From IMG/VR virus record IMGVR_UViG_3300032296_001209, positions 33,354-97,353 of that record: DNA of 64,000 bases, one strand, 5' to 3'. This DNA is from a virus. The notes beneath the pieces are model-generated. The model had not been told where the DNA came from, made no database searches, and saw only the letters and a list, made by a program, of their open reading frames with translations. The stretch's first letter is position 1; each line of letters begins with the position of its first letter. Both the position numbers and the translations under genes were made by a program. Positions 421 to 30,379 of the stretch are shown piece by piece.

Positions 421-445
421 ACTACATATATAATATACAAAATTA
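421..445 (-). promoter_or_regulatory. Putative promoter, TTTTGTATATTATA motif
   Basis: Minus strand TAATTTTGTATATTATATATGTAGT. Related motifs recur in other intergenic gaps; includes a TAnnTTTG match. Confidence 0.5.
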
Positions 446-3400
446 TCTCCTAATTTGGTACTCCATACCTTTCAAAGCTTTAACTGGATCAATTTGATTA
501 CCAGTAAATCCAAACAAGTATCCAAAGTCATTGAAAATTTTAGGTGCACCTTCTTTCTGCCATGAGTAAGGACCTACATCTCTTGTATAGTAGGCACGGT
601 TATCATTAGAAAGTAAGTGAAGTAAGTTAGTACCAAAATCTTTATACTTATCTACAACGGGACCTAATGTAGGTGCTCCTCCATTGTATACTAATCCTAC
701 ATATTCTTTTGGATTTAAGAAAGTAATTGTTTCTTGTCTAGTACCCATTGTTGCAACAAGTGCATGGTTTACTAACCAGCCACCAGCATTGAAGTTATCA
801 GATAATAAATCACCACTTCTTTGGCGCATCTTTTCAAATCTTTCTTCATCATCCGGATCATAGTCAAATAAGTAAGCAATGATAAGAGCCAGTAATGTAA
901 TACTAATGCCTTCAGTTACTATCTTCTTAGCAGCATATGCTTCATCATCTGTCATATACATATTACCACTAGAGGCTCTAGAAACAAAAGACTTTAAGAA
1001 TCTAGCAAATGATCTGTAATAACCTTCTGTCATATCTCCACTACGCATATTATATCTCAAAGGACTAAATCTATTTACAAACATTCTTGTAAAGAATCTT
1101 CTTAATCCTGAGAACATTCTCCATACAGCATACTTATCAAGCATTACTTTATCCATTAAAGAATAAGCACCCTGTAAGTCGTTACTCTTTTCCTGTATAG
1201 TATTACGCATTGCTTTAAACTCTGCACCACCTGGAGCATATGTTTCATCAATACCTGGTTTTAGTTTAATAATTCCCTGACCATCTTTCTCCCAAGCATC
1301 TATGTAATTGATCATATTTGTTTGGCCATTTACTGTTTGTGGTATCTTTTTAAAGATCATCATACCCGCAAACAAAGAAAGTGTACCTTCATTTTCTAAC
1401 CATTTTCTTGGAGCAGTATATACACCATTTGATATACCTTTACCTGCTCCAAACATTAAACTATCTGCTAAGTCAGTACCAAAGGATCTACCAAACTCAG
1501 TACCAAAACGTTCTTGGAATCTACCTTTGATAGGATCAAAAATCTCAACTAACTGATAGTCAATACTTTTCTCACCGGGATTATAGATATTAGCAGAGAT
1601 GTCTGTCATTATCTTTAAAGCTTTTGACTGTCCTTGTAAATAAGAACGCTTGTTAAGATACTTACCACCACCTGATTCAATGATCATTTGTGTAACAGCA
1701 CCACCAAAGTTTTTAACTGCAGATGGTAAAATGTTAAATGCAAACATTCCAAATGAAGATTGTGACTGTAAAATATCTACAGCTTTACTTAATGTAGTAG
1801 GCTCAGATAACCAACCGGCTTTTGTTTGTCCTTTAAACTCTCTTTCAATAAGAGTATTGATTGCTTCAGCTCTTACGTTCTTACCTTTCTTTGCAACAAA
1901 AGATTTAATGTTGTTAGTTACCCAATTATAACCATTTACTTTAGAGGTATCCTTAATAGAATTCTCAGAGTTATTTACAACTTTCTGTAAAGCTTGAGCA
2001 ATAGGATTTAACTCAATAAGTTTTTTCTGGTGCTCTAACGAGAACATGTATTGCAATAGAGAGTACGGTACATTTAATGATACCTGATCTATATCTAGTT
2101 TATATAATCCTTTTACAGGAATAGATGAGATCTCTTCGTCAAACATGTCAGCTCTAACTAAGTTAAACGCATCATCATAGTTGAAGCCCTGATCAAAATC
2201 ATCTTGAGATGTTGTTACAGCATCTTTAACTTGCTTAACAAAAGTCTTTACTTTCTCTGCACCTCTATTTAAACTACCGCCTACTAATTCACTCTTAAGC
2301 TTTCTGAATCTTGGAATATCTAAATATAGTCTACTATACTTAGTTTTATCTTCCTGGAAAAGAAGTGTGTACTTTGTAATAACATCAAGGACATTTGCTT
2401 TATCCGGAGAATTCTTTTGTAAATCATAATAAGCTTTATTGATATAAGAATCATCCTTTGCTCCTTCTGCTACTGTTCTTGGTAACCAGTTACCACGGTT
2501 ATCAACGTGCACCCCTACTTTACGCTCTACTTTACCGGTTGTTTTATTATACCCAGTTCTGTATTCTTTTTTAACAGCTCTTCTGTAAAAATCCATAGTA
2601 GGTATTCTATCTAAAGTAACTTCAGTAGTCTCACCTGTAGATGGATTTACATCGTTATACGTGTAAGTATTATAGTATTCTAGATCAGAAGGAATTGTTA
2701 CATTCCAAACATATAATCTTTCATATACGCGCTCATCCTTTTTAGTCTTACTGTTGTACTTTTCTGTTTCAATGTGATTAGCAAGAAACCATTCTTTAAA
2801 TTCAGGACTTGCTTTAAAGTACTTAGATAAGAATGCGGGCTTTAAAAAATTATCTGAGTTATCAGTATTAATTTCACTAATAGTAAAACCAGCAAGTTTA
2901 GCAGGATCAATAGCCTCTAGATTATTATTAAATGCAGATAAGTAATCATCAGTTGGTTCTTTAGATTGCATATCAGATAGCTGACTATATAAATTTAATA
3001 ATGTCTTCTTAGTTAATCTATCTACAGCACCTTCTCCCTTTAATTTATCTAATTCTTTAAACTCTTCTTTATCATTTATAGATGCTCTTCTGCTTTTAAT
3101 TAACTTAGCTAGTTCTATGTATCTTTCAAACTGTAGTTTACTTAGACCACTAAAGCCAGCCATGTTGTCTTTAATTTTAATCAGTTCTTTCTGTAGTTCT
3201 TTTACCCGTTTGATTCTTTCTTCAGACATTTCTGATCCAACAATTTGTCCATCAGCATTTCTAAATCCTACAGATATATCAATAAGCTCTTCCCAAAGCT
3301 CATCTTGCTTTAGTTTACTAGCTGCATCTTTTGGTAAACCATCTACTATAGCTTTAATCTTATCAAGAATAACTTTCTTTTCATCATAGAAGCTTTCTTT

Positions 3401-6001
3401 AATAGATGTTCTTGTATTAGCTTTAACCCAATCATTAACGTTATCTTCAAATTCTGTATCACTAGAGAGTAAACCCTGATCTAAAAGATCTTGTTTAAAT
3501 TGATTTAGCTTAAACTCAAATAGACCAGTGATCTCTTTATTTTCATAGAACTTACGAGACTCCTCTCTGTACTTTTTTTCTATCTTAGCCATCTCTAATT
3601 CATCACCAGTTTTTAATTTACCGGCTTCATCACGTAGTGAAGATAACTGACTATACTTCTTCCATAGAATCTTCTTTTGTTCAAAAGCCTCATCTTCTGT
3701 AAGATCTTCAAATACCCTTTGATCTACATCAGCAATATCAGCTAGGATGTTTTGCTTTCTTTGATATATGATAGAACCTAAATCAGAGTCATAGATTTTT
3801 TCTTTTGTATAAAACTCCGGTACAAACTCATCATGCATATAATCACGAGAGAATTGTCTGTACTGCTTGTTTAGTAATCTTGCTTTCTCTAAGTCTCCAA
3901 CTCTTTTAGCATCTTCTATATCAAACTGAAACTGGCTTGTTACTTTTTCAAATGCTTTAAATGGATTAAGTAATACTAACTTAGTAATGGTTTTAGGGTT
4001 ACCATTCTCATCACGTACAATAACTTCTTGCTCAGATACTAATTCTTTCATTAGTTCTGTAATGTTCTTATCAGAGTAACCGGCTTGTTTTAATGCTGGT
4101 AATAACTCTCTTAAGAAATCATCTTTATTCTTCTTAGCCTTTAACTCTACATCAGTGTAGGCATTGTCTAAGAATACTGAGAAACTAGCAATAATAGGAT
4201 CCGGTGAACTTGCAAATGATTCTACATAAGCAGATAAAGCATTAACATCACCACGCATTCCTGATAAGTAATCATCAACTGTAGCACGGTTTAATTTTAA
4301 TCTATCCCACTCTTCTTGTACCTCTCTTATTTGTTTTGGAGTAGCATTTTTAGATCTTAACTTCTCAAGCTTATTAGTAAAGTATGTATCTACATTTTTA
4401 GATAAGGGCTCAAGTTGTTCTGTTAATACTCCACCAACTCCTTTTTTATAAATCTCATTAATAAGTCTGTCAGCTTGCTCTGCTTTCTTACCCATCTTAG
4501 CAAATAAAGCAAATAATGAACTATCTGTACGTAAACCGGCATCAGTTAAACCATTAGTAGTTTCTTGAATAAACTTATTCCAGTTACGTAATAAGATGTC
4601 ATAATAGAATGTTTGATTGATAACCTCTTTAGTATCACCAAGAGCTTTCATATCTGTTAACTTATCTATTATTCTATCTAATAAGACATCTGTCTGTAGA
4701 GCGCTTCTTACACTAGCTGTAATTTGTTTCTCTCTCTTATCAACTTCATCTTTAAATTTCTTAACCTTATCATCTACTGTAGTTGTTTCAGCAACACGTA
4801 AGTTATCTACTATATCTTTAAGAATAGATCTTCCTGATTCAGTTGTAATTGTGTCTACAACATCAGAATAGTTTTGGTTTGTCCTAATTCTATTTAACTG
4901 TGATCTAGAGTTAGAAAAGAATCTATTAACTACTTGAATAAGTACATCAGTATTAACTTTATCTAGGTCGTTATACAGAGTTTGATTATTCTTTGCATAT
5001 AGTACTAGGTCTTCCGGTGTAATAATCTCTGTTGTAAGAATAAAGTTCTCTCCAACTAACATATCAGCTAACTGATTAAGTGTAGTATCTACAGATAACT
5101 TCTCAATCTTTATACCTTTACCAAATATTTTTCTGATTAACTGCTTAATAGCAAATAACAGGTTAGAGATAAATGAATTAAATCCAGGAGTAGCAGATAC
5201 TTTATTAGCTTTCTGTACAGCAGCTTGCTCTAAAGCTCTTACAAATACTTCCTGAGCAAAATTAGGGTTAGTAATATCATACTCAGGATATAGTTCAGAT
5301 ACAGTATTTACAAGTGTAGCGCCTTCTGGTGTACTAATAATCTGATTGTATAGATTATTAAACAACTCATAGTTACTTAAATATAAACTTCTAACTATAG
5401 GGTGTGCATATTCATGCAGTACGTGATTTAATTTAAACCCATTCTCAATAAGATATACAGTGTCCTGATAATAAAATGCAGGCTCACCATTCCAGGGAGA
5501 AGTTGTATCTTTTGTAATCTCTGCGGCTTGCTCAGCAGATATCATCTTATAGTTAATACCTGTCTGAGATGCTAAGTTATTAGCAAACTTAGTTGCTATC
5601 TCTTGAGCTTTTACACCCTCTTGTAACTCTACAGATGGAAACAAACTATTTAAAAAGTCTTCATCAGCAACTCTGTAATAGTCAGGACTTTCATCAGTGA
5701 TATTGTTTTTCTTTTTATACTCTTCCCAGTAATGATCAATAACAAAACTTGGAGGATTAACAAATACTCTAGCTGTACCATCCCATGTAATAAAGTCAGC
5801 CATATTGGTTCTCCAATACTGATTTAATCCTATTACTGCCTTTACAATAGATGAGGCACCGGCTCTTGTATCACCGGCAGCATTAACATAAAATGTAGTT
5901 AAACTATCTGTTGGAGATAAGAACTGTCCAACCTCTTTAGCTAAAGCTTTTTTATATGTCTTTAGTACATCATTCTGTATATCTAATCTACACTTACTCA
6001 T
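443..6001 (-). CDS. Large virion-ejected protein with zincin-like (HExxH) domain
   Basis: ~1852 aa, likely start MSKCR at 6001 (ATGA overlap). HEYAH at 5402-5416 with downstream QEVFVRAL; helical; C-terminal hydrophobic segment ISITLLALIIAYLF; last gene of the vRNAP cassette. Confidence 0.75.
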   Translation of the reverse strand: MSKCRLDIQNDVLKTYKKALAKEVGQFLSPTDSLTTFYVNAAGDTRAGASSIVKAVIGLNQYWRTNMADFITWDGTARVFVNPPSFVIDHYWEEYKKKNNITDESPDYYRVADEDFLNSLFPSVELQEGVKAQEIATKFANNLASQTGINYKMISAEQAAEITKDTTSPWNGEPAFYYQDTVYLIENGFKLNHVLHEYAHPIVRSLYLSNYELFNNLYNQIISTPEGATLVNTVSELYPEYDITNPNFAQEVFVRALEQAAVQKANKVSATPGFNSFISNLLFAIKQLIRKIFGKGIKIEKLSVDTTLNQLADMLVGENFILTTEIITPEDLVLYAKNNQTLYNDLDKVNTDVLIQVVNRFFSNSRSQLNRIRTNQNYSDVVDTITTESGRSILKDIVDNLRVAETTTVDDKVKKFKDEVDKREKQITASVRSALQTDVLLDRIIDKLTDMKALGDTKEVINQTFYYDILLRNWNKFIQETTNGLTDAGLRTDSSLFALFAKMGKKAEQADRLINEIYKKGVGGVLTEQLEPLSKNVDTYFTNKLEKLRSKNATPKQIREVQEEWDRLKLNRATVDDYLSGMRGDVNALSAYVESFASSPDPIIASFSVFLDNAYTDVELKAKKNKDDFLRELLPALKQAGYSDKNITELMKELVSEQEVIVRDENGNPKTITKLVLLNPFKAFEKVTSQFQFDIEDAKRVGDLEKARLLNKQYRQFSRDYMHDEFVPEFYTKEKIYDSDLGSIIYQRKQNILADIADVDQRVFEDLTEDEAFEQKKILWKKYSQLSSLRDEAGKLKTGDELEMAKIEKKYREESRKFYENKEITGLFEFKLNQFKQDLLDQGLLSSDTEFEDNVNDWVKANTRTSIKESFYDEKKVILDKIKAIVDGLPKDAASKLKQDELWEELIDISVGFRNADGQIVGSEMSEERIKRVKELQKELIKIKDNMAGFSGLSKLQFERYIELAKLIKSRRASINDKEEFKELDKLKGEGAVDRLTKKTLLNLYSQLSDMQSKEPTDDYLSAFNNNLEAIDPAKLAGFTISEINTDNSDNFLKPAFLSKYFKASPEFKEWFLANHIETEKYNSKTKKDERVYERLYVWNVTIPSDLEYYNTYTYNDVNPSTGETTEVTLDRIPTMDFYRRAVKKEYRTGYNKTTGKVERKVGVHVDNRGNWLPRTVAEGAKDDSYINKAYYDLQKNSPDKANVLDVITKYTLLFQEDKTKYSRLYLDIPRFRKLKSELVGGSLNRGAEKVKTFVKQVKDAVTTSQDDFDQGFNYDDAFNLVRADMFDEEISSIPVKGLYKLDIDQVSLNVPYSLLQYMFSLEHQKKLIELNPIAQALQKVVNNSENSIKDTSKVNGYNWVTNNIKSFVAKKGKNVRAEAINTLIEREFKGQTKAGWLSEPTTLSKAVDILQSQSSFGMFAFNILPSAVKNFGGAVTQMIIESGGGKYLNKRSYLQGQSKALKIMTDISANIYNPGEKSIDYQLVEIFDPIKGRFQERFGTEFGRSFGTDLADSLMFGAGKGISNGVYTAPRKWLENEGTLSLFAGMMIFKKIPQTVNGQTNMINYIDAWEKDGQGIIKLKPGIDETYAPGGAEFKAMRNTIQEKSNDLQGAYSLMDKVMLDKYAVWRMFSGLRRFFTRMFVNRFSPLRYNMRSGDMTEGYYRSFARFLKSFVSRASSGNMYMTDDEAYAAKKIVTEGISITLLALIIAYLFDYDPDDEERFEKMRQRSGDLLSDNFNAGGWLVNHALVATMGTRQETITFLNPKEYVGLVYNGGAPTLGPVVDKYKDFGTNLLHLLSNDNRAYYTRDVGPYSWQKEGAPKIFNDFGYLFGFTGNQIDPVKALKGMEYQIRR

Positions 6002-7749
6002 AATTTGCAACTATTGTATGTTTCATCTTGAACTTCAGGATATCCTATTGGGGCATATGTATTAACTGGTTCTGCATTCTCATCCGTATTAAAACTAGTA
6101 GTGCCATCAGCAAAAGAGAAATATCTATATCCAGCGTTTGTAAACTTAAATGCATTATCAATAAAGGGATCATAGTAAATTAAATCTACTATATCTTTTG
6201 ACCTACCCATTTTAACTTTAGCTTCAAAGATTTGTTTCCAGTCTTTAAAGTAGTTATCAAATATTTCAGGATAGTTACCTTCTGCAGTACGTACAAAGAA
6301 ATCAAAAGTATAAGCTATGATGTTACCTTTATCATCATACTGCTTTTTACCAGCTTCATCTAATATAGGTATAATACCTTGCACGGTTACTGTCTCTTGA
6401 TTAGCTTTATGGTCTTTACCAATAAATGCATTAGTCATCTCAAAGGTCGGATATTTTTCAGTAAAAGATTTATACCAATTTTGATCTTCTATAAATTCTT
6501 TTACTTTAGCTGTAAACTCATTTTGGTCTTTAATAAATATTCCCTTATGATGTAACCAACCATAGAACTCACTATAGTTTTCTTCTTTCTGAACAGTACC
6601 TAATTCTATAACCCCATCAATATCATGTATATCTTCATCTATAGCTCTATAGACGGTGCCATAATATCTTAATACCATAGAACCACTTAACTTATAACCC
6701 ATACTAGGATTATTAAGCATAAAGTCTATAATTGATTTAGCCTTTGCATCTTTAGATAAAGTTTGATTGTACTTTTTTATCTCTAATTGTTTAAATGCTC
6801 CTAGATTATTTTTATCAGGAACTAATAAAGAGTCACCAACTTTTTCTACACCACGTGTAAAAATATTATAATTACCTTTATAGATATCATCTACTAAATC
6901 TAATACTCTATCCTCTAGATCTTGCTGATTAAGTTTATCAAACTTATTTCTAAACAAGGACAAAAATAAATCATGAATCTTATACCATAATTTTTGTAGA
7001 GCACTGGATTGTTTATCATAAGGATTATACTTAAAACCTCGTTTTTCAAAATACTGTTTATCTATATCACCATTACCTCGCTCACTTCTAACAAATGTGG
7101 TTAAATCTCTTCCGTAAAAATCTGTAAGACCCTCAGTAATAAAATCTATAATTACTTGTTTGTGTGCAGTAAAATTAAAAGTTCTATCTGCATACATATC
7201 AACAAGATACGCTGGTAAATCACTATCTTTATCTAGATTTTCTTTAGTAAAAATATCTTCTACCTCTGTAGTATCTTCTAACTTTAATCTATAAGATCTG
7301 TATAGATCTTTATACTTAGACCAACTTTTAATATTAAACCAAAGATTGTTATAGAGCTCACTCTTCTTACCTAAAAAACTAAGCATGATGTTAGCCACTT
7401 GCTTTGGTACAATTTCTTCAGCACCATCTCTAATAGCTAAATACTTTTGTAATAAATCAAATCCAGCTAAAGGATTACCGGGAACATTATTTAATACAGC
7501 TTCAGCAACATTACCACCCTCAACTTTAATATTAAGAGCCTTTACAAAATCTAGTAATATCTTATTAGTTCCTGCAGATAATTTAGGATTAAGAGGAATA
7601 GAATTCTTTTTTCTATTTACAATATTCTTATATACAGTAGCTGGAGGATTGCCCTCAAACTTATCCCAAAGATAAGTAGCCATCTTTGTACCTTGGAATG
7701 CTTCTAACCTTTGAAAGTCAGGATCTGATTTTATAGGACAGGTTGCCAT
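5998..7749 (-). CDS. Virion-ejected protein: degenerate zincin-like N-half plus Pol-beta-superfamily nucleotidyltransferase C-half
   Basis: Likely start MATCP at 7749 (TAATG overlap). LSGSMVL...DIHDIDGV (GS...DxD), TFDFF and KxxxxRSKDIVDL motifs. Confidence 0.65.
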   Translation of the reverse strand: MATCPIKSDPDFQRLEAFQGTKMATYLWDKFEGNPPATVYKNIVNRKKNSIPLNPKLSAGTNKILLDFVKALNIKVEGGNVAEAVLNNVPGNPLAGFDLLQKYLAIRDGAEEIVPKQVANIMLSFLGKKSELYNNLWFNIKSWSKYKDLYRSYRLKLEDTTEVEDIFTKENLDKDSDLPAYLVDMYADRTFNFTAHKQVIIDFITEGLTDFYGRDLTTFVRSERGNGDIDKQYFEKRGFKYNPYDKQSSALQKLWYKIHDLFLSLFRNKFDKLNQQDLEDRVLDLVDDIYKGNYNIFTRGVEKVGDSLLVPDKNNLGAFKQLEIKKYNQTLSKDAKAKSIIDFMLNNPSMGYKLSGSMVLRYYGTVYRAIDEDIHDIDGVIELGTVQKEENYSEFYGWLHHKGIFIKDQNEFTAKVKEFIEDQNWYKSFTEKYPTFEMTNAFIGKDHKANQETVTVQGIIPILDEAGKKQYDDKGNIIAYTFDFFVRTAEGNYPEIFDNYFKDWKQIFEAKVKMGRSKDIVDLIYYDPFIDNAFKFTNAGYRYFSFADGTTSFNTDENAEPVNTYAPIGYPEVQDETYNSCKL

Positions 7750-10700
7750 TAGCCACAAATTTCTTTTAATATTTCACCAATTGTATCTTCATCATATCCC
7801 ATTTCTTCTAGCATTTTAGAATTAATAGCAGATGCTGGATAAATGTTACCATCAACTAAAGTTACCTCTTTTTCTTTTACAACTTGATCCTCAGTATCTG
7901 GGGCACTATCAGCATCTTCTTCAAAGACCTGATTGATAGGTTGCACAGAATAAATATACTCTTTAAATTCCGGATCTTCTGCAAACACAGGATTTTTATA
8001 CCCAAAGTTATAGTATAACTCTTTAAATAACTCCATATAAGCTGGCTTATCAATATTAGGATCATCATTTAAGATACCATATCCTTCTTTGTTAAAGAGT
8101 AATGTTTTACCAGCCTCATATAATTCTATAAGAGTAGTAACAGTATCCTCTACTAACTTCATATTGTTAGCAGTATCTGCAGCATTTAAGTATTTAGCTT
8201 TACCAACAAATGATTCAAAGATTGGTAATCCTATAGTAGTACCAGTTACTTTACTAGCATTACCTAAGTAAGTATCTGAAGCAATAACATTAGTTCCGGT
8301 ATTATCTTTTGCTTTACTATATATACCAACTAGACCTGAGTATTTATTAATCAGTCCTATAGTACGCATCTTACCATAAGAATAAGTATATACTCTAGGA
8401 GTTAATGTTGAAGATGTACCCTCTGGTAATTTAGGAACTTCATCACCCATCTTTTCAATAGTATTATCTACTACATAGTTTTTAAACCTGTACTTAGTAA
8501 TGTTATTTCTAGAGTTCTGCTCACCAAACTTTTTATAGTATCTGTATAAAGCAGTATTACCCTTATCACTTTCTAATACTTTAGTGAACTTATCAATGTT
8601 TTCTTTAATGATATCTTTAAAGTTATTACTAGATAAGATAGGAACAAATGATAAGTATGACTTATTCATACCAGACTGCATGAATCCAAAGATAGATAAC
8701 TTGTTAAAGAACTCAGAAATCTCTCTATTGATAATAGGATCAGGATTCTTTTCTACATTTACATCAGATAGTTCTTCAAACTGGATATTCATTTCTTCTA
8801 AGAAATCAGGATCTTTTGTATCACCAGTTAAACGTAAGTTTTTAATTGTTGCATTCTTAGTAGGAGTCTTAATCTGCTGCGAATCATAAACCAGGTAATC
8901 AAACAAACTATAGTCTTTATTTTCTATAGCATTCTTTACCATCTCAAACTTATCTGGGAAACTATTGGTACCAAAGAACATTGACTTCAGATTGTATACA
9001 TTATGTAAAGCATCTTGAACAAGACCTTTTTCATAGATATCATCTGAAAAAATACCTTTATCTCTAGTAGCACGTAAGTATTCTCTCTCTAAAACAAAAG
9101 CAGTATACTGTTTTTCAGAACTAAATAAAGGTATAACATCTGTACGTTTATCAGCTGGTAATTTTGCTAAACCTGTTTCTTCATACTCAGCCTTAGAATA
9201 AGTTTTATTATTATACTCCTCACGTAACTTGGCTCTATCTAAATAGATCTTACCTTCATAGTATACAGCGCTTCTTTTAAGACCTCTTACCTTCTCTACA
9301 TCAATAGAATCACTTACAGCATAACCTTTGTAATCTTTTACTGTATTGATATCTACAGATCCAATACTATTCTGAATGATAAACTGAAGAAGATCATTTC
9401 TAAATAAATCTACAAATGATTCTACATCTTTATACTCTTCACGGATGATATTATAGTTGTTGTTAATTATATCAGTTAAGTAAGTATTTATGGTATCACT
9501 TGCTCTTAATGGGAAGTAATCTTTAAATACGTTTAAGATATAATCCTGTATAAAGAATGGAGCAATAGAAGATTGATTTTCCATTCTTGTTGTAATCTCT
9601 TGAGGTAATCTATTACCCTCCTCTAATTGTTCTAATTTACTTAAACGACTCTTTGCTTGGAACAAGTTACCAGACTTCTTAGTATCAACGTTAGTAGAAG
9701 AAGAAATTTCCCGCATTACTTGTGCTTGATCCTCTACTTCTAAGAAATGTATAAAGGATAACATAGCAAGAGGACTTCTTTTCTCACCATTCTGTACAAC
9801 CTTTTTAATATTCTCATTAGAGATAGCATAAACATTATAAGCTTTAGTCATAATGTCTACTGCTGCAGTTAAAGATTTTTTAGAAGCCAATGGATTCTTC
9901 ATTGTATTTGCATTATACAATTGCTTAAGTAAGAAAGGATCCTTTATTTTTTTCTTTAACTCAAGTTTATGCTCAGGATCAAATAAACCATATTTGTTTA
10001 TTACATACTGTTTTGCTTTAAACTTTAAGAAACCAGGACCTTTAGCACTATCTCCAGAAGCATCTAATGATTTAGTGTACATACCATTTAATACTCTGTA
10101 TGCAGATATATAATCTCTAATTAAAGGTTGTGATAAGAAATAAGAAGCAGTTTCAACATCAACACCGGCTTGTAACATATACAACAATGTAGGTGTTAAC
10201 TCGTAGATAGCATTCATATCAAATACCCAAGAGTCTTTTTCAACATCCACCCATCCATTCATAAGCTGAGATATTACATCTGAGATATAAACAGCTGAAT
10301 CTTTAGAGTTAAGATCTGATAAAGATATTTTACCATCCTCTGTTTTGTTATGTTTAAATAGAATACGATTCTTAGCAGTTCTTGTCTTTCCTTTACTATC
10401 TAAGAAAGTATAAGTCTTATTTAAATATGCACCAACACGGTTAAGAAGTACTGAATATTTGTTTGATACAGCACCAATACCTAAAGTTAATTTACCAATG
10501 TTATTAGACTCATGCTTATATAAGTTATTCTGAGTCTCAAACATTCTTGTTGGAGAAATAATAAATTCAGAACTCTGGAACTCAGCTTTAGCTCTTGGAT
10601 CATATTCTCTATTATATTTTGCTAATTCATCTGCAATTGGTTTAACAATATCTGTTTCGTTAGGAGTAATAAGCTGAACAAAGTTTTCCTTAATCTCCAT

Positions 10701-13700: not shown

Positions 13701-16700
13701 TATAGCTTTTAAAAAGTCAAATACATTATACTTATTAATTAATGAAAAGTCTTCAAGTACCTTATCTATATTTAAAATAGGTGTTGAACCTTTCTTTCTA
13801 ATTACATACTTAGATTTACTAACTAGGAACTTAGAATTAAAAGTATTAATGATCTTTGTTGTATCACTAGTAGCTCTCTGAATGTATGTAGAAACTTTAG
13901 TTGAACTAGGTTTTCCTTCCTCTTCTTCAATAGAAGTAGAAAGCCTGTGCTCTATAATAGGAGTTACTGTTTTATTAAATGTTTGAGCAAATCCTAACCA
14001 ACGTTTAAAGTTAGCATTATTAATTTGAGATTGACTTGGATCTCCCAACTTAGCAATTAACTGTGCTACTTCTGGAAAACTTTCTTGTAAGCCAATTAAC
14101 TTAGTATATATCTCATCAAAACTATTTGAGTTAATTAAGGTTTTAGATATGGTACTCCAAGCTTTACCAAACTCAACAAGCTTATTAAAACCTAATCTGT
14201 TCTTGATAGGTTCTCCGTTTGCTTTTACTTGGTATAAACTCTTAACCATATAAAGAGCTTGTTTAGAAGCTAACTCTTTTAATGATTTATCATTACCGGT
14301 ACGGTCAAAACTATCTATACTTGGATCTGACTTATCTTCTTCTGCTTCAAGAACTTTTGCTTCAAATGCTAAGTACTTAGATTTTTGTCTATGATAAGCA
14401 ATAACACCTGATTTTTCTTTACCAGAAATAACGTTATCTAATTCACCAAAGTTATTAATAGCATACTCTAAAATCCGAATATTATTTCTATCTACAGTAT
14501 CAGCACCATCAGGATCATTTTCAACTCTAGCAATTGTATCAGTTAAAATATCTTGAAAGTACTGCTTAGTATTCTTATATAAGAAATCTAATGCTCTCTT
14601 ATCACTATAAATAGCTGAAACGTTTAATCCAGTAGCATTAATAATTTCTGAAAAAGCACCATCAACTGATTCATTGATTAACCTACTATCTGATAAACTA
14701 ATACTTGGTTCTTCTTCATTTAATGGATCTATACCTCTATACAAGTTACCAAACTGCATGTTCTCTACAGAGTACGCATACTCAAATAGATTACCCAATC
14801 TTAAGTTATCATATAACTCTTTTACTAATGGTACAACAGTGGGGTCTACAATATCAGTTTGACCGGTAAAGAAAGCTTTTACAATACGCCATAATTTCTG
14901 GAAGATGCTCTCATTAGGTTTAACAAGAATTTTCTTACCATCAGATAACACATAACCTCTAAAGTCTTCAGCTAAGTATTCTTCTACTTGCTTATCTGTA
15001 GCATTAGCTAAATACTTAACTCCTTTTCTTACTGAATTATATAAGCTTTGCTTTTGATCTTGTGTTAATAGTAACTGAGAGAATGCATGCCATGCTTCAT
15101 GGTATAACGTAGTGTAATCTTTTTTACCGGCTTTTGTAAATAATGTAATACCACTAGAACTAAATAGTCCCAATGCATCTGAGTTAGTTAAAGCAATTGC
15201 TTCATTAACCGGAATCATTGTAGAAAGTTTTACTTTCTCACCATCTACCATAACCTCTAAAGATCCATACCAATCTTTAATCTTCTTAATCTCTTCAGGT
15301 GTAGTATTTACAGTTTTAAATCCGGCTCTTTTTAGACTATTATTAATATCATTAATAAGGTCCATATCAAATGTACCTTTAAAACCAGAGGGTGTAGTAT
15401 TTACATTCTGATTCTTGATAACAGTTTTAGGTTTAGCTTTTACTTTAGCTTTTGGTTTGGTTTCTTTAGTCTCTTCTTCAGCTGGTACCTCTTGTTTCTT
15501 TTCAGTTGGATACATTTCTTCTAATGCCTCTACTGTAAATTCATACTGCAGACTGGGATTAAAAGTTTTAATAGTACCATCATTACGTAATACAGTAAAT
15601 ACTACGGTATTCTGTCTTACAAAGTCATTATAGTTAACCTTACTTTTTGCAAACTTTCCTGACTTATAGTTAGGTACATCTATCTTACCATCAATGTTAT
15701 CCTTTGATATGTTTATATAAGCAGTAGCTAATTGCTCTGCTATAAAATCTTCATCAGCTAAATCCGGATTTTCAGAATCATATATCACATCCTTATCTGA
15801 ATAGATACTTAACAATGGTTTCTTAGTAGTATTATCATAACTGATATTAAAAGTACCATCATTAATATTATAGATGTTCTCTAGTATTCCAAACTTTACA
15901 GCGGTTGATACTTTAGGATCTACAATAAGCTTTGCAAGATTCTTAGCTAACTCAGCAGATGTTTTATTTGGAAATATCTGTACTAGATCACCAAACTTAT
16001 CTAACTTCAAATATGTTTTACCAAAGTTATCAAACTCTATATTACTAATAGTATCTGAAGTAACATTACTTACCTCTGTTAACTTAACAGGAGTATCAGA
16101 TAATAAGTTAAAACCAGATCTACCACCAACTATATTTAAAGGTAAAGCTAAAGTCTTATTACCTATGAAGGTCTTAATAAACTTATCTACTAACTGTACT
16201 TCTTTAGTTCTTTGATCCTCTAATTGTTTTCTTAAGACATCAGCATCTGGAATTTCTACTCCAGCTTTAGCAGCCCTAGCAATAGTTCTTTCTACAAGTT
16301 CATCTATAGGTGCAAGACTGGTTTCACCACTCTCTATAAATATAAATTCTCTTTTACCCTTATTAGTGTTAGGGGTAATGAAATCAGTTACGGGAATAAT
16401 AGCACCTTCTGCTTCATCCTGACCCTCAATGTTTGTAATATAACCTCTGCTATTTACAAAGATTTTCTTATATCCATCTTTAGTAAGTGTGGCAAAAGAT
16501 AACTGTGTAATTCTACTACCTCTAGATGTAATTATATCAGTAGGAATCATATAGATCCCTTTGATCTTGGTACCGTTAGATGCGGTTATCTCTATTTGTT
16601 CAGCACTATTTAGATTTTGTTTACTTAATCTATCTAGAATAGAACGCATAAATGCATATGTAGCAATCTTTTCAGGATCTGGATCTGCCTCACCTATTAG

Positions 16701-17192
16701 TTCACCCTCATCATTAACCTCTTCTTCTTGACCAGTGGTAACTAGACCGGTAGTATGCTTTGCTTGAAATTCTATATCATTACTTAATTCTGTTGCTTTC
16801 TCTAATTGAGAACTAACAATACCAGCTTTCTTTCTTACTTGCTCTAGTCTTTCTGGACTTAACTCTTTTACAGCAAGGTATTTTTCTACAACAGTAACAT
16901 CTTCAAAGCTATCTCTAAGATCTAAAACATCATCAGTACTAATTTGATTATCTCTAAGATGCTTACGAACATTAGGATTTTTGTTAACAATAGTAGCAAC
17001 TATTCTTGGAAGTAACTGTATATAGGTTAATCCTAAACTAGGATCATTACTGGCAGCAACTACTTGCTCATAAAATTGATTAACGTAATCTTTTAAATTA
17101 TAAGGTGTTTTGTTATCTGTAATTACAGATAAATCTTTAAAAACTTTAGCATAAAACTGCTGCTGTTGTAATGCGGATAGTGAGCAATTCAT
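7749..17192 (-). CDS. crAss-like virion RNA polymerase (single-chain, double-psi-barrel) with N-terminal zincin domain
   Basis: 3147 aa. RIPVQG...GGDFDIDK (DFDID at 10869-10883, the crAss/phi14:2 gp66-type catalytic motif); DGQGWIT and KFSLMPL conserved blocks; HEAWH at 15087-15101 followed by EEYLAEDF. Confidence 0.92.
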   Translation of the reverse strand: MNCSLSALQQQQFYAKVFKDLSVITDNKTPYNLKDYVNQFYEQVVAASNDPSLGLTYIQLLPRIVATIVNKNPNVRKHLRDNQISTDDVLDLRDSFEDVTVVEKYLAVKELSPERLEQVRKKAGIVSSQLEKATELSNDIEFQAKHTTGLVTTGQEEEVNDEGELIGEADPDPEKIATYAFMRSILDRLSKQNLNSAEQIEITASNGTKIKGIYMIPTDIITSRGSRITQLSFATLTKDGYKKIFVNSRGYITNIEGQDEAEGAIIPVTDFITPNTNKGKREFIFIESGETSLAPIDELVERTIARAAKAGVEIPDADVLRKQLEDQRTKEVQLVDKFIKTFIGNKTLALPLNIVGGRSGFNLLSDTPVKLTEVSNVTSDTISNIEFDNFGKTYLKLDKFGDLVQIFPNKTSAELAKNLAKLIVDPKVSTAVKFGILENIYNINDGTFNISYDNTTKKPLLSIYSDKDVIYDSENPDLADEDFIAEQLATAYINISKDNIDGKIDVPNYKSGKFAKSKVNYNDFVRQNTVVFTVLRNDGTIKTFNPSLQYEFTVEALEEMYPTEKKQEVPAEEETKETKPKAKVKAKPKTVIKNQNVNTTPSGFKGTFDMDLINDINNSLKRAGFKTVNTTPEEIKKIKDWYGSLEVMVDGEKVKLSTMIPVNEAIALTNSDALGLFSSSGITLFTKAGKKDYTTLYHEAWHAFSQLLLTQDQKQSLYNSVRKGVKYLANATDKQVEEYLAEDFRGYVLSDGKKILVKPNESIFQKLWRIVKAFFTGQTDIVDPTVVPLVKELYDNLRLGNLFEYAYSVENMQFGNLYRGIDPLNEEEPSISLSDSRLINESVDGAFSEIINATGLNVSAIYSDKRALDFLYKNTKQYFQDILTDTIARVENDPDGADTVDRNNIRILEYAINNFGELDNVISGKEKSGVIAYHRQKSKYLAFEAKVLEAEEDKSDPSIDSFDRTGNDKSLKELASKQALYMVKSLYQVKANGEPIKNRLGFNKLVEFGKAWSTISKTLINSNSFDEIYTKLIGLQESFPEVAQLIAKLGDPSQSQINNANFKRWLGFAQTFNKTVTPIIEHRLSTSIEEEEGKPSSTKVSTYIQRATSDTTKIINTFNSKFLVSKSKYVIRKKGSTPILNIDKVLEDFSLINKYNVFDFLKAIGFYLDNNPTLRAALENAVVDRKSKETHIAFDYLIEALEKAKENKTIITNPIKFFRDPKQGNQAGYVSKLLTLQARYTSSDFSTGIMNPEGNMEYETSLRNSLSQIIDGLNKLEFMDQMLQDPEFQYLSVYHPNNNPYAKHSYIINSLFDANGNRRKDVILSLENLSGIRRDFNGITVEGIKTNKLNKYDKFMFDVHAIILGKTPELPRHASKSSSYGVGMNKYYGESGVDNLILPIKDVARYGHDSAMPIILNYLSAELERIWYIKNIPSLQNVDSFKKNGTKIMAFDSVLSGPTKAKLYELVDNADSIDDIVYSEELEKAIKKDSGKYFDNQIKTNYKIWTQISAVTGSVLLSPEIRNKIAEETRIGKGLDKTNIYAINPQDQLELVNEVYTYNSWFNNFETQLFYGDASQFKHDKEEFPKRNAAIASTGDFSILDKYTIDYLNNTSNNTYAEKEGLPKLRFDSAVKTTVLDDVEPESVYYSHYKQLLTSLGVSEDRAEKILKPYKKITEGDGQGWITFDFYRNFLRSLNKWSDIQEDLYNQIINDPASVDPRKASEFFPVLKASYYGPLKTEKLNVSGLHKFSLMPLIPSVIKDTNLEQFHKQLLEQGISYALYKSGSKISNITLEDGTIPNMYTDATKRTLYSGEYPINGINLNFFKNQLDIAPYFKGKVTLSSQLRTIIETNLYANGKPLKKEYKPIVERYEKAIDNYVKFYKQKLFKEVGLEFSADGKLIKGDPKDLIKAIQKELVRLEVPEHQMDILDVNEDGSLKYDFDSIINSNAIEKQLVAIIERKIVRPTVRGEQLVQVSSSGFENPKFSNPSKEDLLKYGTNGLAFYDIVDGKITPMQVKIALQGDFLKLLTTIHTDGKPVNTLARLNEMLKDTLWQSINGETIKMIGVRIPVQGLNSIEYMEVGEFLPPEAGSIVIVPTELVAKSGGDFDIDKLSILMPNIGIAKDTTTDSEYKSLLDDLFSKEAMMTTDDTTIRGIENEIIKSMIGIMEIKENFVQLITPNETDIVKPIADELAKYNREYDPRAKAEFQSSEFIISPTRMFETQNNLYKHESNNIGKLTLGIGAVSNKYSVLLNRVGAYLNKTYTFLDSKGKTRTAKNRILFKHNKTEDGKISLSDLNSKDSAVYISDVISQLMNGWVDVEKDSWVFDMNAIYELTPTLLYMLQAGVDVETASYFLSQPLIRDYISAYRVLNGMYTKSLDASGDSAKGPGFLKFKAKQYVINKYGLFDPEHKLELKKKIKDPFLLKQLYNANTMKNPLASKKSLTAAVDIMTKAYNVYAISNENIKKVVQNGEKRSPLAMLSFIHFLEVEDQAQVMREISSSTNVDTKKSGNLFQAKSRLSKLEQLEEGNRLPQEITTRMENQSSIAPFFIQDYILNVFKDYFPLRASDTINTYLTDIINNNYNIIREEYKDVESFVDLFRNDLLQFIIQNSIGSVDINTVKDYKGYAVSDSIDVEKVRGLKRSAVYYEGKIYLDRAKLREEYNNKTYSKAEYEETGLAKLPADKRTDVIPLFSSEKQYTAFVLEREYLRATRDKGIFSDDIYEKGLVQDALHNVYNLKSMFFGTNSFPDKFEMVKNAIENKDYSLFDYLVYDSQQIKTPTKNATIKNLRLTGDTKDPDFLEEMNIQFEELSDVNVEKNPDPIINREISEFFNKLSIFGFMQSGMNKSYLSFVPILSSNNFKDIIKENIDKFTKVLESDKGNTALYRYYKKFGEQNSRNNITKYRFKNYVVDNTIEKMGDEVPKLPEGTSSTLTPRVYTYSYGKMRTIGLINKYSGLVGIYSKAKDNTGTNVIASDTYLGNASKVTGTTIGLPIFESFVGKAKYLNAADTANNMKLVEDTVTTLIELYEAGKTLLFNKEGYGILNDDPNIDKPAYMELFKELYYNFGYKNPVFAEDPEFKEYIYSVQPINQVFEEDADSAPDTEDQVVKEKEVTLVDGNIYPASAINSKMLEEMGYDEDTIGEILKEICG

Positions 17193-17196
17193 ATTA

Positions 17197-20100
17197 TTAA
17201 CAACCTATATTATTAAAGAAATCATTATTTACATCTTTTTCAGACTTGTTATTAGTCTGATCTTCAAGTTTCTTAGTGGCTTCCTCATTATCTAAGAAGT
17301 CATCTATATTCTGTGAGTTAGTCTCAATAATCTTTTTCTCTTCTGCTGAAGGAGAAGGAACATCTTTAGTACCAACTACTACATTGGACTCTGTATCATA
17401 TAATGATTTTACCATTTTTGAGAAATCTTTCTTTAAAATTGTAATGCGTTTATTAGCATCTTTTGCCGGAGTCATACGCTCACCATACAAAGGTACTACA
17501 GTTAACTTAGTTGAAGTAACTTTCTCAACCAAACCAAACTTATTATCCCCAAATACTAATACATCTCCCACTTTAACATTCTCATACTTTACAGACTTAC
17601 TCAACTCTTGTTTACGAGACTCAATTGCTTTATTAACTGCATCAATATTAGCTGGATCTTCAGCCAGTAAATCTAAATCTAGTTCTTCTAGCATAGTATC
17701 TAACTCACCAAGTGACTTGGCTTTACTAATTGTATCTAGGATTGGTTGTAATGGATCAGTAACTACTTCAGCTTCTATAACCGGTTCTTCTTCTACAGGT
17801 TCTTCTGTTTTAACAGGTTCAGCTTTAGGTGCTTCTGCTGGTTTTGCTGGAGCTTTCTTTTCATTAAATGCTTTAACATCTGCAGCATTCTCAGGATCTT
17901 TAAAGAACTTAGTAATAATTCTTCTAGCTGAAGCTGTACGTAAGAATCTATCTAAAGGTAATTCTGATTCACCATCAGCTTCTCTAGCAGAATTCTGTTG
18001 AGTTAATGCAGATCTAATTAAACCTTGTAGCTTAACTGGTAATGTATTAAACTGTTTAACTGATTGAATTAAAGGTACACCCTCTTCTTGCTGTATCTCA
18101 TCTGATACAGCGGGTTGATCTTCTACCACTTCTTCTTCTGTAACTACTTCTTCTGCTGGAGCTTCCTCTGTTACTTCTTCAGTTACAATACCATCAAACT
18201 CGTTAATAATACTAAAGATAAGTAAAGATCTTGGATCAGTCTTATCAAACTCTCTATCTGAATTAAAATCTATAAATACAACATCTAGATCATTAATAAT
18301 AGTTTTTACAAACTCATCATAATCTTTACTTACATCTTTAGGTAAAGAAGATAGTTTTATACCATAACCTCTATCAGCTAGATACTGAATAAAATCTCTA
18401 ACCTTTACAGCATTAATAAAAGACTTTCTAGCATTTTGCATATAAGCAACTTGCTTTTCTTGTCTATATTTTTGTTGTTCTACAAGTCTATTTACATAAT
18501 CATAGAAACTCTGTGGATCATATAATGAATTCAGATTCTCTGTAAATATATTTACATCATCTGATAATGAATAGTAATCAGTTATTATATTATAAGCTTC
18601 CGCAGCTTCAGTTTTAGAGATAGTTGTACCTGCCTCTTGTGCTAAAGTATTAAAGTATTTAATAAAAGCATCTCTTAAAAATCTTTTATTTTTTAATTGT
18701 TCAGAATCAGATACATCTCCAACTTTCTCAAGATTTGTTTTATATAACTCTAATGCTTTCTTCTTAGCTTTTTTATAATTAAGAATCTTTAAAGTTTCTT
18801 TATCTGTAGAACCGGTTAATGATTTGATTTCACTATCTAATAAATCTAACTCTTGTTCAAGATTGTTAGAATTTAATAAGGGTGTAATATCTGAGTATGT
18901 TAATTTACCAATTGTACCAATAGCTGTAAGTCTATCAGTAAGCTCACCCATTCTTTTCTGGGCTTGCTCTCTACCATGTAAACTAAATACAGCAACCTTT
19001 CTTGCTTCTTCAAATGCTTTATAGTTTATTACTTCTTTAACATAAGCATCTTTAGTTTCAGGATCTGATAGATTAGTTCTTCTAAATCTATTAGGATTAA
19101 AAGGATTTTTATAATCTGAGAATTCTTTATACTGCTCTTTAACTTGTTTAGCTCTTTCAATACTAACATCTAATACCTTTAAAGCATCTTCATCAGTTAC
19201 ATCTTCAGTTAAATCAAAGGCCTCTTTTAATTCAGAACCCTTCATATCTTTTAGATTCTCTAGCTTTTGTATTAAGAGATCAAATTTACCAGATTCTAAT
19301 GCTGTATAAATACTATTAAACCGTGCCATATCTTTTAGATCATGAAAAACTTTCTCATCAAAGTTCTTCCTAGCCTCTACCATGTCTGTACCTAATCTAA
19401 CTTGCGTTAGTAGATTTTCCATATCTAAAGTTAAAACCTTCTGACCATTCTTAATAGCATCATCTAATTCAGTAACTATACTTTTAAATCTTTCTTGTTC
19501 TGCTTTATATAATTGATTATACTTTTCAGGATCATTTTTAATGTAGTTATAATAAACATTAGAACCCGCTCTTCTTGATACATTAGCTAAATTACCAGCA
19601 ATACCGGTAAGACCACCCATCAAAAATCCTGACGCAAATACTTCAAGACCTTGCATAGAAGCTTGTCTCTTAGTATTCTCATAGGCATCAGCCAAGTAAA
19701 TCATAATACCACCAGCTTCTGGGGTATCATATAATCTATCATAATAGTTCTTAGAAGCACCAGCCACAACCTCTTGAGAAATTTCCTGAATACCTTCAGA
19801 TAAGTTTCTCTTAAAGTATTGGGCTCCAAAGCTTAAATACTCTTTAGGTTTTAATAATTTCTTAGCTGCTTCTTTTGCAGTTAAAACTGTAGCACCTTCT
19901 GTACTAGCAATAATCTTTTCTCCAGTTAATGCTGATCTAGCAATAACATCATTTGTTGGAGCATTTAGCATTGCTGCTTTACCCTTAAATAAGTTATTAA
20001 AGGTGATAGCATTTGTAAGATATATAAGCGGTGTGTTAATAGCACTAGTGGTAAAACCAGCATCACCAGCTAAACTATATATCCGGTTCATCTCTTCCTG

Positions 20101-21186
20101 TTCTGGATAGTATCCGTTCTCAGAAACAAACTGATTTATCTTATCATCAATAAATTCATTCTTAACAGCACCACCTTCCATAGAAGCTTCAGCAACTGTA
20201 TAACCAACTTGCTTAAGATCTAATATAAAATCACCAACGTTTCTTACAGCATTAGCATAACCAATTACATTATCTCCAGCATTTACTGTATTCCTAATAT
20301 TTGTTAAAGTTCTTGGTACAAGCGCTTCTGCAACACTTGTAACTCCTTGACCCAGCTTGGTAGCATTTAAACCTTTAATAGAGCTATAAGCTTCCCTTGC
20401 ACCATTAGCGGTGAATAACTTACGCATGTTAGCTAAGTCTTTAGCAGCTTTAACTGTCTTAGCAGAACTAGCTGCTAGAGCTGCTGGTAAAGTAGCGCCT
20501 TCGGTTAATGCTACACTACCTGCAATTACAGCTTCAGTTAATAAATAGTCTCCAACAATACCTGCTACAAATCCAGATTGCAATAATAAATTAGAGGCAA
20601 ACTGTGTAGCACCACCTTTAGTACTACCATACTCAGCCATAATTTTAGCAAACTCATCCGCAGCTACTTCATCTGTCATTGAGAAATCACCGGTGAGCAT
20701 CTCACCCATTCCTCTGTAGCTAGACTTAACTACAGATAAACCTAGTGCCGGTACTCCTAATAAGCCTCTACCAAGATCCTCATACCAAGATCTATTTTGA
20801 TTATAGATCTCATCGTTATTAGCTAAAGGATCAAAACCTAATTTATAGAAGTTATCATTATCACTATAGTATCTATTAAAGTTAGTTTTCTGATATCCGG
20901 ATTGAAAAGTTTTAATTTTAGACTTTTCAAAGACAATATCAGATTCAGTAATAGGAGATCTTAAAACATCCTTAGTAATATCAAAAGGATTATTCTTATT
21001 ATAATTTACTTCAAATCCTCCAGTAGGAACTGCTGGTATACTTACATCTTCATTATAAGGAACTAATGGTGCACCGGGTGGTAATGAATTCATACCATCT
21101 ACAAATACCATATCTGGTCCTTGTAATGAATTAGGTATACCGGTTTCTATACCTGGAGGTGGTAAAATGTTTTCAAAATCTGCCAT
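17197..21186 (-). CDS. Large virion-ejected protein, probably membrane-inserting
   Basis: 1329 aa; Gly/Ala-rich hydrophobic stretches (SGFVAGIVG, GFLMGGLTGIAG), AEASMEGG and SEGIQE motifs, coiled coils; immediately upstream of vRNAP. Confidence 0.65.
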   Translation of the reverse strand: MADFENILPPPGIETGIPNSLQGPDMVFVDGMNSLPPGAPLVPYNEDVSIPAVPTGGFEVNYNKNNPFDITKDVLRSPITESDIVFEKSKIKTFQSGYQKTNFNRYYSDNDNFYKLGFDPLANNDEIYNQNRSWYEDLGRGLLGVPALGLSVVKSSYRGMGEMLTGDFSMTDEVAADEFAKIMAEYGSTKGGATQFASNLLLQSGFVAGIVGDYLLTEAVIAGSVALTEGATLPAALAASSAKTVKAAKDLANMRKLFTANGAREAYSSIKGLNATKLGQGVTSVAEALVPRTLTNIRNTVNAGDNVIGYANAVRNVGDFILDLKQVGYTVAEASMEGGAVKNEFIDDKINQFVSENGYYPEQEEMNRIYSLAGDAGFTTSAINTPLIYLTNAITFNNLFKGKAAMLNAPTNDVIARSALTGEKIIASTEGATVLTAKEAAKKLLKPKEYLSFGAQYFKRNLSEGIQEISQEVVAGASKNYYDRLYDTPEAGGIMIYLADAYENTKRQASMQGLEVFASGFLMGGLTGIAGNLANVSRRAGSNVYYNYIKNDPEKYNQLYKAEQERFKSIVTELDDAIKNGQKVLTLDMENLLTQVRLGTDMVEARKNFDEKVFHDLKDMARFNSIYTALESGKFDLLIQKLENLKDMKGSELKEAFDLTEDVTDEDALKVLDVSIERAKQVKEQYKEFSDYKNPFNPNRFRRTNLSDPETKDAYVKEVINYKAFEEARKVAVFSLHGREQAQKRMGELTDRLTAIGTIGKLTYSDITPLLNSNNLEQELDLLDSEIKSLTGSTDKETLKILNYKKAKKKALELYKTNLEKVGDVSDSEQLKNKRFLRDAFIKYFNTLAQEAGTTISKTEAAEAYNIITDYYSLSDDVNIFTENLNSLYDPQSFYDYVNRLVEQQKYRQEKQVAYMQNARKSFINAVKVRDFIQYLADRGYGIKLSSLPKDVSKDYDEFVKTIINDLDVVFIDFNSDREFDKTDPRSLLIFSIINEFDGIVTEEVTEEAPAEEVVTEEEVVEDQPAVSDEIQQEEGVPLIQSVKQFNTLPVKLQGLIRSALTQQNSAREADGESELPLDRFLRTASARRIITKFFKDPENAADVKAFNEKKAPAKPAEAPKAEPVKTEEPVEEEPVIEAEVVTDPLQPILDTISKAKSLGELDTMLEELDLDLLAEDPANIDAVNKAIESRKQELSKSVKYENVKVGDVLVFGDNKFGLVEKVTSTKLTVVPLYGERMTPAKDANKRITILKKDFSKMVKSLYDTESNVVVGTKDVPSPSAEEKKIIETNSQNIDDFLDNEEATKKLEDQTNNKSEKDVNNDFFNNIGC

Positions 21187-30374: not shown

Positions 30375-30379
30375 TTTAG

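Follow-up and report, generated by a model that had tools for sequence, protein, structure and literature searches.

Results

Facing terminal cysteines in a cassette of giant genes

We have found that four consecutive giant proteins encoded on a 64,000-nt stretch of viral DNA (the window, by which we mean the whole stretch that was analyzed) share only six Cys residues among their 6,911 amino acids (aa), and that each of the six lies no more than four residues from a terminus that faces the neighboring protein across a gene junction. The window belongs to IMG/VR record IMGVR_UViG_3300032296_001209 (full record, 97,353 bp; 81% complete), and the proteins, P1 to P4 in gene order (Table 1), include a protein identified by homology as a virion RNA polymerase (RNAP), P2. 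Neither the N terminus of P1 nor the C terminus of P4 carries a Cys, which leaves the outer ends free, as the initial annotation of the window had proposed for an open linear chain. A survey of related phages showed that the pairing of Cys across junctions is a family-wide rule and not a matter of chance. The best explanation, and in our judgment a probable one, is that the separately translated proteins are tied end to end by intermolecular disulfides into a chain that could be threaded as one and released by reduction.

The six Cys had first been counted by eye. Translation of the four open reading frames (ORFs) returned the same residues at exactly the same coordinates, and the computed Cys content of all four ORFs revealed no internal Cys that had been overlooked. 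The junction types, a 4-nt gap, TAATG and ATGA, were read from the junction DNA as claimed. Gene starts were taken as the first ATG throughout; alternative TTG starts lie three codons upstream in the 583- and 1852-aa ORFs, and homologues conserve the ATG starts.

The scarcity of Cys does not extend to the remaining 28 minus-strand proteins of the window, which contain 199 Cys in 13,749 aa (1.45%), and base composition alone (G+C content, 31 to 34%) predicts 3.1%. Because the remaining proteins of the window stand at 1.45%, approximately 100 Cys would be expected in the cassette, compared to the six observed. By our own arithmetic, six Cys placed at random would have a chance of approximately (24/6911)^6, or about 2e-15, of all landing within the 24 junction-facing terminal positions.

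Nature of the cassette proteins

P2 is identified as the virion RNAP because DFDID, a form of the DFDxD catalytic motif of two-barrel RNAPs, occurs in it at residue 2104 (10869-10883) and because BLAST matched it to crAss001 gp50 (E value, 8e-13) and to phi14:2 g066 (E value, 1e-23 over 976 aa); the initial annotation had likewise counted a virion RNAP among the four proteins. Residues D2104, D2106, and D2108 are invariant in the alignment of P2 homologues. P2 also contains a zincin-like HEAWH motif at residue 698 (15087-15101), and the region that includes it (residues 666 to 750) matches the C terminus of crAss001 gp47 (E value, 3.5e-6). P4 matches crAss001 gp49 in BLAST (E value, 2.5e-9) and has a zincin-like HEYAH motif at residue 196 (5402-5416), of which H196, E197, and H200 are at least 90% conserved. 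The tail tubular and muzzle proteins of crAss001 have weak homologues upstream of the cassette. These matches identify the cassette as the RNAP-associated cargo block of a crAss-like phage, and homology together with synteny with the tail-tubular-like and muzzle-like genes makes it most likely that its proteins are packaged in the virion and ejected.

Family searches returned little else. Pfam, PHROGs, and NCBIfam gave nothing meaningful for P1 to P4, a phmmer search with the single P2 sequence gave nothing among PDB sequences at an E value of 0.001 or below, and megablast of the cassette against a phage collection gave no match. Because the 97,353-bp record, only 81% complete, contained nothing that matched Terminase_6N and PHROGs gave no capsid or portal match among the window proteins tested, we term the phage crAss-like and do not classify it as a member of the Crassvirales. 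The suggestion of the initial annotation that the bead is a nucleotidyltransferase, taken here as one of the Pol-beta type, gained no backing for the 583-aa P3: its searches against Pfam, PHROGs, NCBIfam, and PDB sequences (phmmer) were all empty, and its AlphaFold2 model (mean predicted local distance difference test [pLDDT] score, 46) was too poor for a fold search.

Conservation of the terminal cysteines

Homologues of P1, P2, and P4 retain the terminal Cys pattern down to approximately 22 to 25% identity. Among P4 homologues, which range from 99% to 22% identity, 73 of 76 have a Cys at residues 2 to 6, and in most of them it is the only Cys in 1,600 to 2,900 residues. The 120 P2 homologues have a Cys within the last 10 residues in 116 cases and within the first 10 residues in 93, and in 83 the only Cys are terminal; C3146 of P2 is invariant in the alignment, and C3 is at least 90% conserved. 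Exactly one Cys, located within the last eight residues, was present in 39 of 42 P1 homologues, none of which (0/42) has an N-terminal Cys. Across 55 phages, the last 120 aa of P1 (mean column identity, 22%) have a single invariant column, that of the C-terminal Cys, and the first 120 aa of P2 (mean column identity, 27%) likewise have only that of the N-terminal Cys.

Internal Cys residues are kept in several RNAP subfamilies (P0173, P0176, P0177, P0179, P0181, and P0191 to P0196, as well as Cys1334 of gp50 from crAss001 [L007]); these single residues align with approximately residues 1500 to 2000 of P2.

Pairing across junctions and inserted proteins

We surveyed 86 related viral contigs (L-numbered loci) and scored the junctions between adjacent ORFs of at least 300 aa. 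The 192 junctions comprised 142 with Cys on both sides, 50 with Cys on neither side, and none with Cys on one side only. Of the Cys in the surveyed cassette proteins (572,301 residues), 290 are terminal and 30 are internal. In nearly all contigs P1 has only a C-terminal Cys, the RNAP has both, and the last protein has only an N-terminal Cys. The outer ends are free: none of 51 P1 N termini has a Cys, the junction between P1 and the protein upstream of it has Cys on neither side in 40 of 40 of these related loci, and within the P4 family a C-terminal Cys occurs only in ORFs for inserted proteins that have another protein after them. These results support a functional pairing of the Cys that follows gene order from one junction to the next and leaves the chain ends unpaired.

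Gene insertion and loss preserve this logic, a point that the initial annotation had proposed to check. P3 is present in L001 to L006 and missing from the close relatives L008 and L009, where the RNAP protein adjoins the last protein directly and both Cys are retained; it is therefore an optional "bead" that carries both connectors. Inserted chain proteins always have both Cys, which holds for the 583-aa protein of the window clade and for the beads of L006, L030, L041, L046, L076, and L085 (Table 1). Searches of Pfam, PHROGs, and NCBIfam gave nothing meaningful for these seven beads.

Table 1. Cassette proteins, inserted beads, and neighboring ORFs, with their Cys residues as read from the translations
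Feature	Locus	Coordinates	Strand	Length (aa)	Cys residues
P1, first link	Window	17197..21186	-	1329	Single Cys, the last residue (codon 17200-17202); N-terminal Cys absent
P2, identified as virion RNA polymerase	Window	7749..17192	-	3147	Only Cys 3 (17184-17186) and Cys 3146 (7755-7757)
P3, optional bead	Window	5998..7749	-	583 (from ATG)	Only Cys 4 (7738-7740) and Cys 581 (6007-6009)
P4, last link	Window	443..6001	-	1852 (from ATG)	Only residue 4 (5990-5992); C-terminal Cys absent
Protein upstream of P1	Window	21195-23762	-	855	None
Protein upstream of P1	Window	23817-27440	-	1207	None
Small ORF just downstream of P4	Window	112-360	-	82	Four
PHROG 220-like protein	Window	27975-30401	-	808	Only 649 and 652 (CxxC)
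Inserted bead	L006			1167	Both termini
Inserted bead	L030			252	Residues 3 and 252 (last residue)
Inserted bead	L041			515	Both termini
Inserted bead	L046			655	Both termini
Inserted bead	L076			396	Both termini
Inserted bead	L085			304	Both termini

In L076, a GIY-YIG/NUMOD3 homing endonuclease gene (21952-22545) is located between the 396-aa bead and the last chain protein; it breaks the Cys rule, as expected, because its product is not cargo. Varied extra domains (LysM, HATPase_c_3, PF18760, helicase/AAA, PF13532, and PF08719) occur near the break between the RNAP and the last protein, on either side of it depending on the phage; the carriers include P0017, P0035, P0048 to P0058, P0128, P0138, P0144 to P0156, and P0163. 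These look like a shuffled set of injected effector modules.

Cultured and named phages

The rule is followed by crAss001, DAC15, phi14:2, p-crAssphage, cr50_1, and Fpv1. In phi14:2, the Cys of g067 is the last residue only, g066 has Cys only at residue 3 and at the penultimate position, and g065 has Cys only at residue 3. The gene for the first protein lies on the opposite strand in both crAss001 and DAC15, far away from that for the RNAP, and its product still ends with its only Cys; the RNAP and last proteins of both phages carry the matching residues. Because the pattern is kept when the first gene lies on the opposite strand, it is not a by-product of overlapping or translationally coupled genes.

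Fpv1 (L092), a cultured Flavobacterium phage of the genus Fipvunavirus that is not classified in the Crassvirales, has the same RNAP block. Its 4401-aa fused protein has its only Cys near the C terminus and adjoins a 1596-aa protein with a Cys at residue 3. Lone C-terminal Cys residues occur in p-crAssphage (L088, BK010471), in which gp47 ends with KQSCR, and in crAss002 (L090), in which gp30 ends with FRCGGKKKIA; in both phages the next protein has no N-terminal Cys. These residues depart from strict head-to-tail parity; such a Cys could form a C-to-C homodimer link or have its partner elsewhere.

Absence of cysteines at fused borders

Where cassette genes are fused, the Cys pair is missing from the fused border. 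Fusions of P1 and P2 keep the C-terminal Cys alone and have none at the border (P0185, P0184, P0195, L081, Fpv1 gp33, and cr50_1 059), fusions of the RNAP with the last protein have no C-terminal RNAP Cys (p-crAssphage gp44 and crAss002 gp33), and P0174, in which RNAP-like and last-protein-like parts are joined, has no Cys at all. A 5002-aa protein of L086 has no terminal Cys. Bead modules can be fused into the N-terminal region of the last protein or the C-terminal region of the RNAP, and the P3 module is found inside the N-terminal region of P4-family proteins; the borders have no Cys in either situation. The terminal Cys are therefore strictly coupled to real polypeptide ends.

In a FastTree phylogeny of the RNAP core, a few rows of which are truncated gene calls, the N-terminal Cys state changes at least nine times and the C-terminal state at least three times. 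Most proteins without an N-terminal Cys have 2,059 to 3,474 residues upstream of the RNAP core, compared to a median of 1,802, and all proteins without a C-terminal Cys have 1,480 to 2,736 residues downstream of it, compared to a median of 827. Longer flanks on the Cys-less side fit with fusion.

The position of the break can also differ between phages. The break follows the zincin-like module in crAss001 and precedes it in the window phage, and a Cys is found at the break in both. Within the IMG/VR set, the length of P1 and the length upstream of the RNAP core were uncorrelated (rho, 0.07), giving no sign of a sliding P1/P2 break-point, and the zincin module was in P2 in 78 of 78 cases, so that a shift of the break is apparent only in the comparison with crAss001 and p-crAssphage.

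Two gene models deserve comment. The annotated start of crAss002 gp33 (L090, 13088-13190) is probably 32 codons too far upstream, since Met33 is followed by Ser-Cys, like the MSC start of p-crAssphage gp44. In L082 (16540-16546), the RNAP is broken into ORFs of 2181 and 1226 aa, and the break has no Cys. We considered this split as a counterexample and rejected it: the two frames share a few bases, and reading continues directly from one into the other, so that it is most likely a frameshift inside one gene, which could reflect an assembly frameshift, a pseudogene, or programmed frameshifting.

Discussion

Chemistry of the paired cysteines

We consider a disulfide to be the best chemical reading of the paired Cys because such a bond has been seen by cryo-electron microscopy between equally placed Cys of two ejection proteins of cyanopodophage A4 (Anabaena phage A-4L). 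In the A4 virion, the C-terminal helix of gp27 is inserted into a cleft of gp26, where a disulfide that joins Cys1715 of gp27 to Cys5 of gp26 holds it in place (PMC12002296). In the A-4L genome, these two residues are the only Cys of two adjacent, co-oriented proteins of 1717 and 1114 aa, whose facing termini read NPCQF (gp27) and MSKHC (gp26), so that, as in the window, a single Cys lies near each facing end (third from the C terminus and residue 5, respectively). Furthermore, intermolecular disulfides have been reported in the tail of crAss001 virions (PMC10172136).

The A4 bond was observed in the virion. A4 has one link between two proteins and no RNA polymerase, whereas the window has three links. 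A4 belongs to the Saffermanviridae and has a cyanobacterial host, its proteins show no sequence similarity to those of the window (no BLAST match of gp26 to gp29 to a window protein or to any of the homologues collected had an E value below 0.4), and the A4 paper states no fission/fusion rule. The sequence comparison thus indicates a likeness of mechanism, not of descent.

The initial annotation had suggested co-folding the facing terminal peptides of each junction. For the P1 tail and the P2 head, the co-fold provided a weak hint of contact, with a score of 0.39 compared to 0.00 for the best of three controls; the runs agreed in at least 61% of contacts, and the partner pLDDT was at least 65. 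Of 80 solved complexes, 58 reached the mark used for such co-folds, as did 2 of 110 mismatched pairs, and scores of 0.60 or less at the mark were found for only 7 of the 80 solved complexes and for both of the mismatched pairs that passed.

A proposed chain of cargo proteins

In the mechanism that we favor, the four proteins would be made separately, would probably dock via their terminal segments, and would be packed in the head. A head-to-tail linkage would form once the particle is in an oxidizing setting, each C-terminal Cys most likely being disulfide bonded in the virion to the N-terminal Cys of the next protein, to give the linear concatemer P1-S-S-P2(vRNAP)-S-S-P3-S-S-P4. With a topology like that of the single giant polyprotein of some relatives, the chain could be injected ahead of or with the DNA, passing the narrow portal and tail channel as one partly unfolded thread, and cytoplasmic thiol reductants would then free the parts with no need for a protease. 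The chain would stay linear because each Cys is within approximately 10 residues of an end, and a linear chain fits the near absence of internal Cys, the way in which the Cys track the break-points, and the requirement that beads carry both tags. The disulfide chemistry, by analogy with A4, and ordered threading and release by reduction are the parts of this scheme that we infer.

Several points weigh against such a chain. Disulfides cannot form in the reducing cytoplasm during assembly, the gut habitat of crassviruses is anoxic, and we know of no crassvirus in which the bond has been shown experimentally. Because the cytoplasm is reducing, oxidation would have to follow lysis or occur inside the head. 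No thioredoxin was found in the 97-kb phage record, which is 81% complete; a search of the record for an Erv-type oxidase was likewise empty, but it was equally empty in every control genome and is therefore uninformative. Internal Cys are tolerated in some relatives, for example, 7 in p-crAssphage gp44 and 3 in DAC15 63, and the lone C-terminal Cys of p-crAssphage gp47 and crAss002 gp30 (Intestiviridae cargo) have no obvious partner. In addition, the surveyed loci are related to each other, so that the junction counts are not independent events. Finally, the papers on crAss001 (PMC10172136) and phi14:2 (bioRxiv 10.1101/2020.03.07.982082) make no mention of such a bond.

The main alternative, which we regard as unlikely, is that the same Cys-Cys bond acts as a static staple that locks the packed cargo, a pre-ejectosome, in the head, and that the proteins leave separately or after the bond breaks. 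This is how the A4 bond has been understood: inside a fivefold ring around the portal axis, the disulfide stabilizes the gp27 helix in the gp26 cleft and is treated as a local stabilizer (PNAS 2025, PMC12002296). Our present data say nothing about the order of exit. However, in relatives a single polypeptide of more than 4,000 to 6,000 aa contains the same modules and, unless it is cleaved first, would exit as one thread, so a linear chain is at least tolerated, and the restriction of Cys to approximately 10 residues from the ends is needed by a threadable link and not by a mere staple.

A metal bridge, which the initial annotation had put forward as an option, is less likely still, and we judge it improbable that the paired thiols hold an ion or cluster (Zn, Fe, or Cu) between neighbors. 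Two thiolates of two chains can share a metal, and four Cys could meet if copies of the chain pack together; however, each terminus offers only one Cys, the alignments of the P1 tail and P2 head contain no conserved His or Cys neighbors, and in A4, the only solved case with this signature, the bond is a disulfide.

It is very improbable that each terminal Cys works on its own without a partner, for example in acylation, as a packaging signal, or by attaching to the portal or DNA, and that the Cys face each other only as a by-product of gene order or translational coupling. The lone C-terminal Cys of gp47 and gp30 would suit such roles, but one-sided junctions are absent from the survey (0/192), the outer chain ends never carry Cys, the rule holds when the genes are on opposite strands, and apart from the Cys codons the junctions have no DNA motif in common. 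As for chance or composition, by which a Cys-poor, AT-rich genome would leave its few Cys at gene ends, the low G+C content is all that speaks for it, and it is refuted by the conservation of the pattern in hundreds of homologues, quite apart from the Cys content predicted by composition, that of the rest of the window, and the placement of the six residues. We also considered and rejected a junction motif at the DNA level, sites for split inteins or autoproteolysis, and signals of the lipobox or CaaX type: the Cys lie at the very ends, their surroundings show no conservation, and none occurs at fused borders.

Relationship to known systems

Among the closest counterparts of the window cassette are gp47-gp50-gp49 of crAss001 (PMC10172136) and g067-g066-g065 of phi14:2 (bioRxiv 10.1101/2020.03.07.982082), which have a homologous RNAP and last protein and the same terminal Cys pattern. 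The crAss001 proteins gp45, gp46, gp47, gp49, and gp50 were found in virions and assigned to tail and head cargo zones (PMC10172136), and in both crAss001 and phi14:2 mass spectrometry detected the block proteins in the virion. The RNAP structure of phi14:2 has been solved. These phages have three proteins and two junctions, whereas the window has the additional 583-aa protein and a third junction; moreover, the zincin-like module is in the first protein of crAss001 (gp47), the gene for which is on the opposite strand, and in the N-terminal region of the RNAP in the window.

Fused crAss-like forms have the same modules in the same order and the same linear topology (p-crAssphage gp44 combines the RNAP and the last protein), and the phi14:2 preprint noted that all three proteins make up a single fused "huge polyprotein" in other crAss-like phages (bioRxiv 10.1101/2020.03.07.982082). 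The fused modules are joined by a peptide bond, and a protease would be needed to separate them, whereas the bond proposed for the window chain is reducible.

The giant ejected proteins of the Schitoviridae, including the virion RNAP (N4 gp50 and DEV gp71 to gp73), are also nearly Cys free, and the depletion in N4-like ejected proteins has been linked to passage through the envelope (PMC11445570). In that family the RNAP is one polypeptide and no terminal Cys pairs have been reported, whereas in the window depletion is combined with strictly retained terminal Cys.

A literature search turned up no account of terminal Cys in the cargo of crassviruses; nothing on the subject appears in the crAss001 atlas, in the phi14:2 preprint, or in a 2026 N4 paper. 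What is new here is the proposed multilink chain, which includes the RNA polymerase and follows a fission/fusion rule; a single bond of this type was already published for A4.

Crassviruses, which outnumber all other phages in the human gut, have to pack and inject approximately 0.7 MDa of protein, among it the polymerase with which infection starts. A conserved tether, if real, would provide a model with fixed stoichiometry, a polyprotein-like threadable topology, and release by reduction, and would explain the freely drifting break-points of the giant genes. More tentatively, and with some doubt, it can be envisioned that terminal Cys pairs are a general modular loading and delivery code of crAss-like phages, in which tagged proteins with short docking segments would be spliced into a redox-cleavable string of fixed stoichiometry, injected as one thread, and unclipped by host thiol reductants. 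Under such a code, phages could gain or lose injected effectors by bead insertion, and giant genes could split or fuse without altering delivery. The signature also offers a sequence rule for spotting injected cargo in metagenomes, including new effector beads, and it is present in the cultured phages phi14:2, crAss001, and DAC15.

Neighboring genes

The two Cys-free proteins encoded upstream of P1 (Table 1) are probably further cargo that lies outside the chain. Part of the 808-aa protein matches PHROG 220, "minor head protein and DNA pilot" (E value, 6.5e-6). The small ORF just downstream of P4 has hydrophobic segments, and its product looks like a small membrane protein, perhaps holin-like; homologous small ORFs follow the cassette in L001, L002, L008, and L009.

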